Below are positions 34,244-35,455 of a stretch of 64,000 nt of DNA, piece after piece (the first letter of the stretch is position 1; each line of letters begins with the position of its first letter). The translations under genes and the position numbers were made by a program. The stretch comes from an uncultured Flavobacteriales bacterium (lineage in GTDB: Bacteria; Bacteroidota; Bacteroidia; Flavobacteriales_D; JABDKJ01): contig CAZSQZ010000009.1 of NCBI GenBank assembly GCA_964609215.1, positions 16,394-80,393 of the forward strand, written 5' to 3'. The notes under the pieces are model-generated. The model was not told the origin of the DNA and made no database searches. It saw only the letters and a program-made list of their open reading frames with translations.

Positions 34244-34315
34244 TAGGAATAGAAAGATTCGAACTCTCATCCTCTGGTTCGTAGCCAGATATTTTCTCCC
34301 TTAAACTATATTCCT
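34244..34315 (-). tRNA. tRNA-Arg (anticodon ACG), AT-rich, no encoded CCA
   Basis: Hand fold: AGGAATA/TA/GTTT-AAGGGAGA-AAAT/A/TCTGG-CTACGAA-CCAGA/GGAT/GAGAG-TTCGAAT-CTTTC/TATTCCT/A. 72 nt. Confidence 0.7.
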
Positions 34316-34320
34316 ATTTG

Positions 34321-34393
34321 TGGAACAGAAAGGACTCGAACCTTTATCTTCCCGTCTTCAGCGGGTCGCATTGACCATCTTTGCTACTATTCC
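34321..34393 (-). tRNA. tRNA-Phe (anticodon GAA), no encoded CCA
   Basis: GGAATAG/TA/GCAA-AGATGGTCA-ATGC/G/ACCCG-CTGAAGA-CGGGA/AGAT/AAAGG-TTCGAGT-CCTTT/CTGTTCC/A. 73 nt. Confidence 0.7.
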
Positions 34394-34396
34394 ATT

Positions 34397-34469
34397 GGGT
34401 GTCTTCGAGGCTCGAACTCTGTTCTCTTCAGTCACAATGAAGTGTTTTACCGCATAAACTAAAGACACC
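34397..34469 (-). tRNA. tRNA-His (anticodon GUG) with G-1:C73, weak T stem
   Basis: GGTGTCTT…AAGACACC gives an 8-bp acceptor helix with G-1:C73. D arm GTTT-ATGCGGTA-AAAC. Anticodon arm CTTCA-TTGTGAC-TGAAG. The T arm CAGAG-TTCGAGC-CTCGA has only 3 Watson-Crick pairs. Confidence 0.6.
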
Positions 34470-34474
34470 ATAAG

Positions 34475-34548
34475 TACCCCTCCTAGGATTCGAACCTAGA
34501 CTGTAAGGATTTTAAGTCCTATGCCTCTGCCAATTGGGCCAGAGGGGC
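34475..34548 (-). tRNA. tRNA with Leu anticodon UAA but a short (5-nt) variable region
   Basis: GCCCCTC/TG/GCCC-AATTGGCAG-AGGC/A/TAGGA-CTTAAAA-TCCTT/ACAGT/CTAGG-TTCGAAT-CCTAG/GAGGGGT/A. 74 nt. Confidence 0.6.
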
Positions 34549-34558
34549 AATTAAACTT

Positions 34559-34681
34559 GTGCTCTGTAGGGGAGAACCCCTATTTTCTGATAGAACTTAG
34601 CGAAGCGATCTCAACGAATCCATTGGAGATCATTCCCCTTGAGTCAAAGTCAGATGTACCAGCGGTTCTACTAGCAGAGCA
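34559..34681 (-). ncRNA. ~122-nt aberrant tRNA-like RNA (5' 43 nt tRNA-colinear, internal ~55-nt insert, tetraloop hairpin in place of the T arm)
   Basis: GCTCTG…CAGAGC terminal helix. U8. D-like GTA…TAC. TCTGA-CTTTGAC-TCAAG (UUG loop, weak stem). Insert with GATCTC-13 nt-GAGATC (34607-34630). TAGGGG-TTCT-CCCCTA lies directly before the 3' acceptor strand. Confidence 0.35.
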
Positions 34682-34685
34682 TTAG

Positions 34686-34759
34686 TGCGGAGAGAGAGAC
34701 TCGAACTCTCAAATACCTGATTCTAAGTCAGGCGCCTTTGCCAATTTGGCCATCTCCGC
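34686..34759 (-). tRNA. tRNA with Leu anticodon UAG but a short (5-nt) variable region
   Basis: GCGGAGA/TG/GCCA-AATTGGCAA-AGGC/G/CCTGA-CTTAGAA-TCAGG/TATTT/GAGAG-TTCGAGT-CTCTC/TCTCCGC/A. 74 nt. Its D arm is paralogous to that of 34475..34548. Confidence 0.65.
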
Positions 34760-34764
34760 ATTTG

Positions 34765-34835
34765 TTGCTCTATCAGGGTTCGAACCTGAAATCCAAGAAT
34801 CAAAATCTTGTGTGTTGCCATTACACTATAGAGCT
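34765..34835 (-). tRNA. tRNA-Gln (anticodon UUG), A1-A72 mismatch
   Basis: AGCTCTA/TA/GTGT-AATGGCA-ACAC/A/CAAGA-TTTTGAT-TCTTG/GATT/TCAGG-TTCGAAC-CCTGA/TAGAGCA/A. 71 nt. Confidence 0.65.
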
Positions 34836-34841
34836 ATTTTG

Positions 34842-34962
34842 TTTGGGAAGTAGGATTATCTCACGTTTGAATTAATCCTAAATGATGTTCGTGAATGCAA
34901 AGCATTTCGAACCTACGACCTCCCGCGTCCAAGGCAGGTAAACAACCACCGTTATCTTCCAA
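34842..34962 (-). ncRNA. tRNA-Pro(UGG)-like gene with a ~50-nt insertion inside the T-loop
   Basis: TTGGAAG…CCTGC-CTTGGAC-GCGGG/AGGTC/GTAGG-TTCGAA[50 nt]T-CCTAC/TTCCCAA. The T-stem 3' strand and the acceptor 3' strand reappear only after the insert (34856-34905). The insert has its own hairpins AATGC-ttt-GCATT and TAGGATTA-14 nt-TAATCCTA. Confidence 0.45.
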
Positions 34963-34971
34963 GATTTTTTT

Positions 34972-35024
34972 GCTTAACATTCTCATGACTTCAGGAGACA
35001 GCTGAATTCAGTTGAACATTAAGC
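34972..35024 (-). other. long interrupted hairpin whose apical stem-loop is anticodon-arm-like (TTCAG-CTGTCTC-CTGAA)
   Basis: An outer 11-bp helix GCTTAATGTTC/GAATGTTAAGC (2 wobble pairs), a 7x7 internal loop, an inner 5-bp stem, and a 7-nt loop CUGUCUC (GUC in the anticodon position). It occupies a tRNA-sized slot in the array. Confidence 0.3.
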
Positions 35025-35028
35025 AAAG

Positions 35029-35111
35029 TGAAAGCGGCAGGACTCGAACCTGCATGCTCAGAAGAGACCTGATTTACAGTCAGGCGAGCCAACCAATTGC
35101 TCAACACTTCC
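35029..35111 (-). tRNA. tRNA-Tyr (anticodon GUA), class II with long variable arm
   Basis: GGAAGTG/TT/GAGC-AATTGGTTG-GCTC/G/CCTGA-CTGTAAA-TCAGG/TCTCTTCTGAGCAT/GCAGG-TTCGAGT-CCTGC/CGCTTTC/A. 83 nt. Confidence 0.75.
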
Positions 35112-35120
35112 ATATTTTAG

Positions 35121-35192
35121 AGACAAGGATGAGAGTCGAACTCATAAAAACAGTTTTGCAGACTGCTGCCTTAGCCATTCGGCCACCTTGTC
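35121..35192 (-). tRNA. tRNA-Cys (anticodon GCA), U73 discriminator
   Basis: GACAAGG/TG/GCCG-AATGGCTA-AGGC/A/GCAGT-CTGCAAA-ACTGT/TTTT/ATGAG-TTCGACT-CTCAT/CCTTGTC/T. 72 nt. Confidence 0.75.
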
Positions 35193-35198
35193 AATTCG

Positions 35199-35312
35199 CG
35201 GAGAACAAAGGAATTGCTGCGCAGATCGCTGCGCTCAGAGTTCGAACCTTCACCGCGGATATGCGGCCTCACTTAGCAGTGAGTCTAACGAACCAGTATT
35301 TACCTATTCTCC
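35199..35312 (-). ncRNA. tRNA-Ser(GCU)-like class II gene with a 28-nt insertion in the T-loop and a 6-nt anticodon loop
   Basis: GGAGAAT…CTCAC-TGCTAA-GTGAG / variable arm GCCGC-atatcc-GCGGT / GAAGG-TTCGAA[28 nt containing GCGCAG-cgat-CTGCGC]T-CCTTT / GTTCTCC / G. T-stem strands at 35247-51 and 35207-11. Confidence 0.45.
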
Positions 35313-35317
35313 ATTTG

Positions 35318-35455
35318 CGGAAAGAGTGGGAGTCGAACCCACACGAGTCGTTATCTCCGAACGGTTTTAACTCCATATAGCGAACTCAATTGGTGTCGTT
35401 GAGTTCGCTTTGCTCAGTTCAAGGTCGTGACCACCACCAATTGGCTTGTCTTTCC
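35318..35455 (-). ncRNA. 138-nt tRNA-like RNA: perfect acceptor and T arms, Ser(UGA)-type 5' half, ~65-nt non-tRNA core
   Basis: GGAAAGA/…/GTGGG-TTCGACT-CCCAC/TCTTTCC/G. The 5' part AGCC-AATTGGTGGT-GGT and ACGAC-CTTGAAC resembles a class II D arm plus the 5' half of an anticodon arm. Internal 9-bp hairpin AGCGAACTC-13 nt-GAGTTCGCT (35379-35409), whose loop CACCAATTG is complementary to the D-loop CAATTGGTG. Confidence 0.4.

Follow-up and report, generated by a model that had tools for sequence, protein, structure and literature searches.

Supernumerary tRNA arrays are widespread, and both their control and their purpose are largely open. A stretch of 64,000 nucleotides from an uncultured Flavobacteriales bacterium (contig CAZSQZ010000009.1 of assembly GCA_964609215.1; hereafter, the window) raises this question in a compact form: what is the use of a tRNA array about 1.2 kb long that stands among genes for RNA repair, and how might such an array be switched on? 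Comparison of the window with related loci pointed to an answer that we hold to be probable, if by no great measure. According to it, the array would be an accessory "backup" tRNA operon within a chromosomal RNA-repair island, and a ribosome-mediated attenuator would monitor the operon's own tRNA species. A previous reading of the same DNA, made from the letters alone (the sequence-only reading), had drawn attention to the array and interpreted it as a pool of replacement or decoy tRNAs, not as a supplement to codon usage. The repair genes, the interrupted tRNA genes, and the leader-peptide attenuator lay beyond its observation.

The array occupies positions 34243-35455 of the minus strand and comprises 13 elements arranged head-to-tail with very short spacers (Table 1), that is, many genes of the same orientation close enough for co-transcription, as in an L-array. 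The density and orientation described earlier were borne out, and the spacers listed at that time coincided with the element boundaries. However, the elements were not 13 tRNA-sized units. Only eight of them were called by both ARAGORN and the Rfam model RF00005, namely Arg-ACG, Phe-GAA, His-GUG, Leu-UAA, Leu-UAG, Gln-UUG, Tyr-GUA, and Cys-GCA; the other five, 54-138 nt long, were four interrupted tRNA genes, X0 (138 nt), Ser (114 nt), Pro (122 nt), and Glu (121 nt), and one tRNA remnant designated H (54 nt). The canonical members scored 46.7-69.6 bits with RF00005 and had a full cloverleaf and a 7-nt anticodon loop; a gathering threshold of 29 bits and both structural features were required for assignment as a tRNA. 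Eight covariance-model matches within 950 nt, with E values of 1e-8 to 1e-14, are far beyond chance, and neither ARAGORN nor RF00005 detected a tRNA elsewhere in the 64-kb window. X0, H, and the Ser, Pro, and Glu genes were not called by ARAGORN and gave no RF00005 match even at E<=1. They lie in the gaps between the canonical calls (34549-34684, 34836-35027, and 35193-35455), inside which GGTTCGA T-loop motifs were found. These gaps were resolved by global alignment with the array of the closest relative, a metagenome contig (L163/L164 in our set of loci) with identical synteny and a ligase 88% identical to that of the window. The two arrays are orthologous, with 90-94% identity over the tRNA genes.

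None of the 13 elements is followed by CCA, in agreement with the earlier description, and all eight canonical tRNAs end with N73-C74 followed by a non-C base. According to a reading by eye, the interrupted genes and a tRNA-like RNA farther downstream (X1) share this end and H does not. C74 is thus encoded, and C75 and A76 are not, in every canonical member; the same operon encodes two RlaP nucleotidyltransferases. The claimed AT-richness held for several members, as the overall GC content was 0.38-0.52 and the 5' strand of the acceptor stem contained two G+C of seven positions in Arg and three of seven in Phe, His, and Gln. With respect to the anticodons, Tyr-GUA, His-GUG, Arg-ACG, and Gln-UUG had been recognized correctly, whereas Phe-GAA, Cys-GCA, and both Leu had been missed. 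The reported GUC loop exists as the invariant CUGUCUC loop of H, and the UUU-like loop probably corresponds to the anticodon loop of Glu-UUC, which is divided by an insert of 52 nt. No tRNA with a CAU anticodon was found; the CAU-like loop may derive from the CATAAA loop of another tRNA-like RNA, X3, outside the range of that reading, or from a CAT triplet that H contains at about 34986. The proposed correspondence with anticodon nucleases also lost several of its parts: the 64-kb window contains no Lys, Asn, or initiator-Met tRNA, and the anticodons assigned to PrrC (Lys), to VapC (fMet), and, for Asn, to the colicin E5 set are therefore absent.

All eight intact anticodons end in A or G and thus read codons starting with U or C. 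The ancestral set had two members that break this rule, Ser-GCU and Glu-UUC, and in the window each of them carries an insert. Unrelated ligase-linked arrays (L049, L123, L133, and Chryseolinea) were also seen to use His-GUG, Pro-UGG, Arg-ACG, Gln-UUG, and Leu-UAG.

The canonical members bear marks of selection on structure. Over nine families of orthologues, 145 of 198 stem pairs were invariant, 37 showed compensatory changes, 11 were changed on one side, and five were broken in some sequence. The tRNA-Tyr, which is the most widely conserved member and is present in all flavobacterial operon arrays and in Chryseolinea, accumulated 12 compensatory pairs among eight orthologues; for Leu-UAG, five such pairs and no broken ones were found among four orthologues. 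The identity elements were retained as well: G-1 and C73 in His, U73 in Cys, A73 in Leu, Phe, and Tyr, and C1-G72 in the Pro tRNAs of the relatives. Since the stems evolved by compensation and the identity elements were kept, the canonical members appear to be maintained as working tRNA-shaped molecules.

This result bears on an explanation in which the array RNAs act outside translation, either by diverting tRNA-cleaving toxins in the manner of decoys or sponges, or by serving RtcB, RlaP, the ligase, or Band-7 as cofactors or scaffolds, as proposed for b7a-tRNA and YrlA. The locus is rich in non-decoding tRNA mimics (X0, H, X1, and YrlA-like domains), H preserves an invariant anticodon-like loop without D or T arms, a tRNA-like RNA cofactor has been predicted for RtcB/Band-7 systems, and a sponge role has been suggested for the operonic tRNAs of Anabaena (PMC8421152). 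The unusual class I shape of the Leu tRNAs could be added to this list. However, 7-nt anticodon loops, identity elements, and compensatory changes in all four stems are more than a decoy needs, and according to the same study, 23 of 26 operonic tRNAs of Anabaena were charged in vivo. In addition, a leader that senses failure of decoding, such as the one described below, fits best with a product that restores decoding. We therefore consider it unlikely that the array as a whole functions outside translation; the decoy half of the earlier interpretation is not favored for the canonical members, and a decoy or cofactor role is possible for H, X0, X1, and the YrlA-like units.

As for the Leu tRNAs, both Leu-UAA and Leu-UAG are 75 nt long with a 5-nt variable loop, without the long variable arm that otherwise characterizes tRNA-Leu throughout the bacteria. 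This short form is conserved in L163 and in two other flavobacterial loci (L168 and L170), and phage genomes contain short "Leu" tRNAs of a similar kind.

The content of the array does not correspond to the codon demand of the host. None of its tRNAs serves the commonest codons, AAA, ATT, AAT, and GAT, and for GAA there is just the Glu gene with its insert, whereas rare residues are covered: Cys (1.2%), His (2.0%), Gln (3.1%), and CGN-Arg. Moreover, Cys, Phe, and Glu, each a sole-isoacceptor type, are disrupted in one or the other of the two sister taxa. Orthologues of RlaP with about 60% identity in named Flavobacteriales belong to the same WYL / RtcB / RlaP / RlaP operon and are followed by collinear arrays of very different size, from one to about 12 tRNAs. 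The array of Fluviicola taffensis (L168) consists of Ser, Cys, Pro, Tyr, H, a Pro-like gene, Leu, and an interrupted Phe; that of L170 of Pro, Tyr, H, a Pro-like gene, Gln, Leu, Leu, His, and Phe; that of L169 of a Ser-like gene, Ser, Tyr, H, a Pro-like gene, and a YrlA-like unit, after which Band-7 follows; and that of Winogradskyella (L171) of Tyr only. Because of this variable content, the disrupted sole-isoacceptor genes, and tRNAs for rare rather than for the commonest codons, we infer that the array is accessory and redundant with housekeeping tRNA genes. It is thereby made unlikely, on indirect grounds, that the array holds the sole copies of these isoacceptors in the genome, the condition under which the sequence-only reading would have failed. 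The same features, together with the location in a repair island, link it with tRNA damage or depletion and not with codon supply, so that this part of the earlier interpretation is supported in its direction.

The alternatives to an accessory function are an ordinary tRNA operon, for housekeeping or codon supplementation, and the decaying remains, now without function, of a tRNA cluster from a phage or mobile element. In favor of these, many bacteria have arrays of this size, the Leu, Gln, and Tyr members are similar to tRNAs of phages, and extra lesions accompany the disruption of four members. The variable content and the disruption of Cys, Phe, and Glu speak against housekeeping, and the neglect of the commonest codons speaks against supplementation. 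A relic would not be expected to keep its order and position down to about 60% RlaP identity together with 37 compensatory pair changes, a conserved leader and terminator, and flanks free of phage genes. Taken together, these explanations seem very improbable to us.

The phage connection was followed on the level of individual genes. Leu, Gln, and Tyr were 78-90% identical to phage tRNAs, with no near-identical phage record; tRNA-Tyr was 86% identical to the tRNA-Tyr of IMG/VR phage arrays and was the only member to match these arrays. No phage genes, such as would surround a prophage tRNA cluster, were found in the 64-kb window, and the array is flanked by uvrA, metH, an ECF sigma factor gene, and cell-envelope genes. 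A recent phage origin was thus not supported, only single tRNAs having matches among phage records.

The evidence for regulation comes from the region upstream of the array. The leader in the window is the only ORF of at least 25 codons there, and its frame is kept in L163 despite a 3-codon indel. In each of five flavobacterial loci (window, L163, L168, L169, and L170), exactly one upstream ORF of 39-44 codons (MK.I.EH.I...) was found, and a distance of 68-76 nt separates its end from the first tRNA. For each leader, the share of codons that the array tRNAs read was compared with the locus's own codon usage. In the window, 24 of 38 leader codons were of this kind (background 35%, P=4e-4) and all 11 tRNA species of the array were represented (P=0.0024). 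The corresponding values were 23 of 41 in L163 (background 35%, P=0.005; 11 of 11 species), 20 of 41 in L170 (24%, P=3e-4; seven of seven), 8 of 43 in L169 (9%, P=0.04; four of four), and 10 of 42 in L168 (16%, P=0.13; six of six).

Leaders that match their arrays were also found in other lineages. In L133, where the array consists of Pro, Pro, His, Gln, and Gln, the leader MKNLVNIVQQPQPQHQHQPMVN... contains the run QQPQPQHQHQP, in which 10 of 11 consecutive codons are self-read against a background of 6% (P<2e-5). The leader of Chryseolinea sub-array 2 (Pro, Tyr, His, Arg, Ser, Ser), MNKSHVHSSYRRPQPL..., includes the run SHVHSSYRRPQP, and its best 11-codon window gave P=0.002. For the L123 array (His, Ser, ...), the leader MKSLSLHSYLSLSLYP... 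gave P of about 0.02-0.04.

Between the leader and the first tRNA gene, an intrinsic terminator was identified in the window with RNAfold (-15.2 kcal/mol), after a simple terminator scan had missed it; it is conserved in L163. Terminators were found at the analogous place in L168, L169, L170, L005/L007/L114, L133, and L123, where they abut the first gene. Across loci, the hairpins had energies of about -12 to -24 kcal/mol and were followed by a T-run; the flavobacterial ones ranged from -12 to -15 kcal/mol and ended about 13 nt before the first gene. This position directly upstream of the array is consistent with silence by default. When the 3' arm of the terminator was removed in RNAfold, a segment near the end of the leader ORF, complementary to the terminator 5' arm, paired with GCACCTCC. 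The duplex had an energy of -9.9 kcal/mol in the window (P=0.02 vs shuffled leader tails). An equivalent pairing was predicted in all nine leader-bearing loci, inside the ORF and downstream of the regulatory codons; within the tested segment of the last 12 codons, it surpassed shuffled tails at P<=0.02 in six of the nine, with a Fisher-combined P of 2e-8 in which related loci are included. The predicted layout, as modeled, is the classical 1:2 / 2:3 / 3:4 arrangement. Thus, the locus has the codon-enriched short upstream ORF and the terminator with a predicted, mutually exclusive antiterminator overlapping the ORF that are expected of an attenuator, while the downstream genes encode tRNAs and an RNA ligase and not enzymes that make the sensed amino acid, which places it outside the known leader families of amino-acid operons. 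Among the Rfam leader families, only a weak match to Phe_leader was obtained (23.8 bits, E=0.49).

Based on these features, the following sequence of events is proposed. Transcription would start from the promoter-like box near 35698-35668 and enter the 39-codon leader ORF, whose codons for His, Gln, Leu(UUR), Leu(CUN), Phe, Tyr, Cys, Pro, Arg(CGN), Glu, and Ser(AGY) correspond to the 11 tRNA species of the array. With an intact tRNA pool, the ribosome would reach the stop codon and cover the GGAG-rich segment, the terminator would form, and transcription would end 13 nt before the first tRNA gene. If one of the tRNAs were cut by an anticodon nuclease, lost, or left uncharged, the ribosome would stall upstream, the GGAG segment would pair with the terminator 5' arm as antiterminator, and read-through would allow transcription of the 13 array elements and of the Rnl2-like ligase. 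RNase P and RNase Z would then release the CCA-less tRNAs, which would be completed and charged, so that the pool would be refilled, while the repair of broken tRNAs would fall to the ligase and the neighboring RtcB-RlaP unit. We take depletion or cleavage of tRNA species to be the probable input, since extra tRNA cures the loss of tRNA and not amino-acid starvation.

Several points weigh against this interpretation. The enrichment in the L168 leader is not significant, and homology among the five flavobacterial leaders (window, L163, L168, L169, and L170) deprives the five tests of independence. The absence of both Cys codons and a Cys tRNA from L170 fits covariation of leader and array within the clade; however, the leaders of L168 and L169 keep the full composition of 11 species though fewer tRNAs were called there. 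The argument from covariation within Flavobacteriales is thus weak, and the weight rests on the comparison between clades. There too, Chryseolinea sub-array 1 (Asn, Lys) showed no enrichment (P=0.44), and the arrays of L049, L072, and L042 were without an evident leader. The antiterminator was weak in L169 (P=0.24) and, in the tested segment, in L133. The promoter was assigned by eye and is a candidate only; the sigma-70 scan does not cover the Bacteroidota promoter type. A box ..AATATTTG.. upstream of the leader ORF was also present in L163, L168, L170, and L169. To our knowledge, it has yet to be established that transcription and translation are coupled in Bacteroidota. The redundancy with housekeeping tRNA genes is presumptive, the charging of both class I Leu tRNAs, which lack the long variable arm, is uncertain, and the disruption of four of the 12 tRNA-derived genes, the carriers having acquired extra lesions, indicates weak selection on individual members. 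Finally, a leader with regulatory codons of 11 kinds would register any general slowdown of elongation as well.

The last point leads to an explanation in which the operon is the same inducible accessory unit and the leader is a general sensor of translational stress, such as antibiotics or slow elongation, resembling leaders of the erm/cat type and not specific to tRNA. Almost any elongation defect would be registered by so many codon kinds, and the L168 leader and that of Chryseolinea sub-array 1 do not significantly match their arrays. The L-array of Anabaena is induced by translation-inhibiting antibiotics (PMC8421152). On the other hand, the leader follows the array in independent lineages, with a Q/P/H run before Pro/His/Gln and S/H/Y/R/P before Pro/Tyr/His/Arg/Ser, which would be needless for a generic sensor, and every array species is represented in each of the flavobacterial leaders. 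A purely general sensor is for these reasons rather improbable, and we retain the attenuator that monitors the operon's own tRNA species.

Whether bacteria from several phyla have accessory tRNA arrays under attenuators with self-read codons seems to us an evenly balanced matter. If so, such arrays would form a closed loop, a "tRNA-stat," in which the ribosome itself signals the loss of particular tRNAs, for example after attack by an anticodon nuclease, and which responds by transcribing fresh copies and an RNA ligase. A literature search for leader peptides or attenuation in combination with tRNA arrays or operons returned nothing relevant, which, given the incomplete full-text coverage, is weak evidence of absence. 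If the proposal is true, classical attenuation would be extended from amino-acid supply to tRNA integrity, and the switching-on of cryptic tRNA arrays would be explained by a simple and directly testable sensing mechanism, a leader that samples the tRNAs encoded downstream. The composition of the leader could then predict which tRNAs a bacterium expects to lose. Transcription attenuation would be joined with tRNA-targeting toxins and phage defense and with the RNA-repair operons containing RtcB, RlaP, Band-7, and tRNA mimics. Cultured carriers with complete or near-complete genomes are available, namely Fluviicola taffensis DSM 16823 and Chryseolinea serpens DSM 24574.

Table 1. Positions of the elements of the tRNA array, its leader region, and the surrounding RNA-repair island in the window.
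Feature	Position	Strand	Characteristics
WYL-WCX domain regulator	40091..41140	+	Pfam WYL E=5e-11, WCX E=1e-12; divergent from RtcB
RtcB	40026-38641	-	Pfam PF01139, E=1.6e-35
244-aa helical protein	38696-37962	-	all-alpha model, generic repeat matches; 39 homologues only
RlaP	37950-37204	-	Pfam E=6e-61
RlaP-like protein	37207-36137	-	Pfam E=2e-25
Promoter-like box, Bacteroidota type	35668..35698	-	TTG 35698-35696, 20-nt spacer, (T)AAATATTTG 35677-35668; assigned by eye
Leader ORF, 39 codons	35527..35646	-	MKIALEHIIQAHLVQEQGCSSLRLFYPEFKKFYREKHLK; ends 71 nt before the first array gene
Antiterminator 5' strand (predicted)	35538..35547	-	AGGGAGAAGC (codons AGG GAG AAG C..); complementary to terminator 5' arm
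Intrinsic terminator	35468..35495	-	GCACCTC, loop CTCGT, GAGGTGC, nine T; ends 13 nt before the first array gene
X0, 138-nt tRNA-like RNA	35318..35455	-	acceptor GGAAAGA/TCTTTCC, T-arm GTGGGTTCGACTCCCAC; not called by ARAGORN or Rfam
Ser-GCU gene, interrupted	35199..35312	-	28-nt hairpin insert in T-loop, 35241-35214, after TTCGA; not called by ARAGORN or Rfam
tRNA-Cys (GCA), U73	35120..35192	-	ARAGORN; Rfam 63.3 bits; L163 orthologue with 28-nt T-loop insert
tRNA-Tyr (GUA), class II	35028..35111	-	ARAGORN; Rfam 53.3 bits
H, degenerate tRNA-Asp-like hairpin, 54 nt	34971..35024	-	closing stem GCTTAA/TTAAGC, inner stem-loop; between Tyr and Pro
Pro-UGG gene, non-canonical	34842..34963	-	50-nt T-loop insert (about 34906-34857); C1.A72 mismatch; aligned to intact L163 Pro
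tRNA-Gln (UUG)	34764..34835	-	ARAGORN; Rfam 58.6 bits; orthologues show compensatory changes
tRNA-Leu (UAG), class I, short variable loop, A73	34685..34759	-	ARAGORN; Rfam 69.6 bits
Glu-UUC gene, interrupted	34560..34680	-	52-nt anticodon-loop insert, 34647-34596; aligned to intact L163 Glu
tRNA-Leu (UAA), class I	34474..34548	-	ARAGORN; Rfam 55.1 bits
tRNA-His (GUG), encoded G-1, C73	34397..34469	-	ARAGORN; Rfam 46.7 bits
tRNA-Phe (GAA)	34320..34393	-	ARAGORN; Rfam 62.9 bits; L163 orthologue with 28-nt T-loop insert
tRNA-Arg (ACG), GC 0.38	34243..34315	-	ARAGORN; Rfam 62.4 bits
ATP-dependent RNA ligase, Rnl2-like nucleotidyltransferase domain only	33578..34240	-	Pfam PF09414, E=1.3e-17; KIDGTN motif
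X1, ~200-nt tRNA-like ncRNA	33194..33394	-	acceptor GTCTCTT/AAGAGAC, T-arm GTCGGTTCGAATCCGAC; terminator-like hairpin 33184-33161
X2 and X3, two YrlA-like circularly permuted tRNA-like domains	32834..33013	-	just upstream of Band-7
SPFH/Band-7 protein	31451..32551	-	Pfam PF01145, E=3e-21

The island surrounding the array begins with the divergent WYL-WCX regulator gene and continues with the genes of RtcB, the 244-aa protein, RlaP, and the RlaP-like protein, the leader and terminator, the array, the ligase gene, about 1 kb of non-coding RNA (ncRNA), and the Band-7 gene. The divergent arrangement of the WYL gene is shared by L163, L168, L169, L170, and L171. No Pfam match was obtained for the 244-aa protein. 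The RtcB-RlaP unit (36137..40026) is a separate transcription unit upstream, with its own terminator-like hairpin near 35988-35918, which was seen in a Yfr10 Rfam alignment. The genes for RtcB and Band-7 lie on the same strand within 8.6 kb, as expected of an RNA-repair system, and the same pairing was found in L163, L169, and L171. Among proteins of solved structure, the best relative of the ligase was T4 Rnl2 (E=2e-4). Its ATG begins 3 nt after tRNA-Arg, a geometry that implies co-transcription with the array.

A dependence of the array on this ligase was considered and rejected. No tRNAs lie near the closest homologues of the ligase (72-83% identity), which occur in other contexts, including phage-like contigs; most of about 150 ligase-homologue loci were without other repair genes and without tRNAs; and the array follows the RlaP-RlaP pair even where the ligase is absent. 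Ligase-adjacent arrays occur in scattered phyla, and in Flavobacteriales the constant position of the array in the operon points to vertical descent. One ligase, 82-83% identical to that of the window, was located on a phage-like contig (L165/L166, ENA ERZ2485795 NODE_127) with dozens of small ORFs as well as GroEL/GroES, Dam, and a YunG-like gene. It thus appears that phage and chromosome exchanged the ligase recently and independently of the array.

Comparison with L163 also clarified the nature of the interrupted genes. Ser-GCU, Pro-UGG, and Glu-UUC, which carry inserts of 28, 50, and 52 nt in the window, are intact in L163, whereas Cys-GCA and Phe-GAA, intact in the window, each have a 28-nt T-loop insert in L163. 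The carriers have suffered additional damage: the Ser-GCU gene of the window has lost one nucleotide compared with its intact L163 counterpart and retains a 6-nt anticodon loop, the Glu-UUC gene has a 3-nt deletion in the T-loop, and in the Cys gene of L163 G19 is replaced by A and the 7-66 pair is mismatched. Because of these further lesions, the insert-bearing genes are probably pseudogenes, which would be tolerated if the array is dispensable in unstressed cells.

Three of the four disrupted genes of the window were interrupted by members of a shared family of mini-elements. The three 28-nt T-loop inserts and the inserts of X0 and Glu have in common a 5' module ACT(NN)GAGYNNARCGAWC; the X0 insert shares the module ACTGAGC..AGCGA with the other inserts. 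The Glu insert matches that of X0 solely as its reverse complement (28 of 37 positions identical, P<=5e-4), and the 50-nt Pro insert shows no detectable similarity to the others. The inserts are situated 3' of T-N-G-A (TTCGA|ACT in three cases, CTTGA|ACT, and ATAGA|ACT on the opposite strand) without an evident target duplication, and their stems covary. Since they occur in either orientation and their presence differs between sister genomes, they are best understood as a family of miniature DNA elements that act at the level of DNA. An interpretation as tRNA introns, either group I or archaeal bulge-helix-bulge (BHB), was rejected given the reversed Glu copy and the extra lesions of the carriers. 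A length of 28-69 nt is far too small for a group I intron, and, as read by eye, the T-loop junctions lack the 4-bp helix flanked by 3-nt bulges that the BHB form would have.

In the 64-kb window and about 1.5 Mb of related loci, no further copies of the 28-nt insert were found outside the two sister arrays, and the exact insert pattern had no match in IMG/VR. A home-made structural scanner for tRNAs with T-loop inserts gave 109 matches vs 81 in reversed-sequence controls and was dropped. The evidence is compatible with a family of hairpin elements, 28-69 nt long, whose insertion is specific to the T-loops and anticodon loops of tRNAs; this would be a secondary novelty of the locus. Like elements of the REP or IS200-IS605 type, they are short hairpins 3' of a fixed tetranucleotide, without evident target duplication, and polymorphic between sister genomes, whereas all copies in our data are inside tRNA loops of one array. 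Membership in such a group might be considered as a hypothesis only. A different insertion, the perfect 16-nt palindrome CCCGATAGCTATCGGG, was observed in the D-loop of the Phe-GAA gene of Fluviicola (L168 ~13090-13175); hairpin insertions in tRNA loops therefore recur beyond one element family.

X0 resembles a tRNA of the Ser-UGA type with an insert of about 69 nt (about 35418-35350) after CTTGA in the anticodon loop. This insert is common to the window and L163, where ARAGORN called the orthologue with introns allowed, and an uninterrupted homologue of X0 opens the L169 array (15676-15762). Element H is conserved in L163 and follows tRNA-Tyr in every flavobacterial array. Its inner loop is invariant (35001-34995, with GUC at 34999-34997), and six of the eight pairs of its inner stem showed compensatory changes across five loci. 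Because its versions in L168 (12893-12962) and L170 (12676-12743) still scored 32-39 bits as tRNA, H is regarded as a degenerate tRNA-Asp-like element, which could serve as a minimal substrate or decoy for an anticodon-loop nuclease. GUC is the anticodon of Asp, but position 37 is U, and the D and T arms have been lost in the window.

Some features of the related arrays have no counterpart in the window. Between Leu-UAA and His, L163 contains an additional tRNA-like gene (9655-9728), for which ARAGORN gave the anticodon UUA ("Stop") and Rfam 46.9 bits; judged by eye, its anticodon loop may be irregular. Downstream of the arrays of L168 (13087-13764) and L170 (13135-13704), about five repeats of the form GGTCAA-N8-9-CTTACTTC were observed, each followed by a T-arm-like piece, and the same stretches contain oversized tRNA-like genes of 115-126 nt. 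The repeat module was not seen in the window.

The tRNA-like ncRNAs X1, X2, and X3 lie between the ligase and Band-7 genes; a tRNA-like ncRNA next to Band-7 is a mark of the predicted b7a-tRNA system. X1 is 98-99% identical to its counterpart in L163, which exceeds the conservation of the flanking coding sequence. Where a tRNA has its anticodon region, X1 has a large insert, and ARAGORN, with introns allowed, called it with 110 nt of inserted sequence; a homologue was detected beside the Band-7 gene of Chryseolinea lacunae (L009 4305-4491; E=4e-16). X1 may be the predicted b7a-tRNA. Just upstream of its promoter-like box, an inverted repeat TACGCAA-N5-TTGCGTA (33487-33505) was observed, also in L163, L168, L170, and L171; it could be an operator, perhaps for the WYL regulator. 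X2 and X3 are laid out as T-arm, loop-closed acceptor, and D-arm, with helices that covary with L163, and a homologue of X3 precedes Band-7 in L169. The better of the two domains scored 28.6 bits (E=8.5e-4) with the Rfam YrlA family, whose gathering score is 69, and gave a partial tRNA match of 24.5 bits; it shares the permuted tRNA-like architecture with YrlA (RF02553) but falls short of membership. None of the annotated neighbors was a Ro60/Rsr/TROVE gene. For X0, H, X1, and the leader region, no Rfam family exceeded its threshold, with weak matches to YrlA, the tmRNA T-arm, and Phe_leader.

Among the known systems, the RtcB/Band-7 unit with a "b7a-tRNA" predicted by Burroughs and Aravind, as summarized by Wang et al. 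(bioRxiv 10.1101/312249), corresponds to the island in its RtcB, RlaP nucleotidyltransferases, second RNA ligase, Band-7, and tRNA-like ncRNAs directly upstream of Band-7. RlaP adds one or two nucleotides to damaged RNA 3' ends (PMC12776372). The predicted system has a single tRNA-like RNA, proposed to act as a cofactor, whereas the window has an apparently chargeable set with 11 anticodons and its own leader. The tRNA-loop mini-elements and the tRNA mimics (X1, H, and the YrlA-like units) would add further components to it.

Phage tRNA clusters with repair enzymes, such as T4 with Rnl1/Pnkp and jumbo phages with RtcB, Rnl, and RlaP (PMC7824862), similarly combine tRNAs, ligases, and RlaP against tRNA-cleaving nucleases. 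In contrast, the locus of the window is chromosomal, lies between uvrA and metH flanks without phage genes, and is inherited with the operon in Flavobacteriales. The classical attenuators of trp, his, phe, leu, thr, and ilv resemble the leader in the short ORF with regulatory codons, the intrinsic terminator, and the antiterminator 5' strand at the 3' end of the ORF. They differ in that here tRNAs and a ligase would be regulated through up to 11 codon families, the input being the availability of tRNA and not of an amino acid.

The closest parallel is the trn operon of Anabaena PCC 7120, the one studied case of array control. This L-array is silent, induced by translational stress, and co-regulated with rtcB, and the longest L-arrays reach up to 43 genes (PMC8421152). 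Both loci have dense same-strand arrays of extra tRNAs with a few pseudogenes, a link with rtcB, and an SPFH/slipin protein, in Anabaena at the level of the regulon; the proposed role, replenishment of the pool or a sponge under translational stress or tRNA cleavage, is also similar. In Anabaena, control is exerted by the repressor TrcR, which acts on direct repeats in promoters and whose regulon includes rtcB and a slipin gene (PMC10272220); the signal of this repressor is unknown, and that work makes no mention of a leader peptide or attenuation. By comparison, the array of the window is located inside the repair island, is shorter (eight intact and five altered elements), and is accompanied by a presumably co-transcribed ligase and a leader ORF with matching codons and a terminator. 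We thus provisionally classify the locus as a new combination, a putative L-array-like backup operon that is fused into an RtcB/RlaP/Band-7 repair island and would be controlled by an attenuator.

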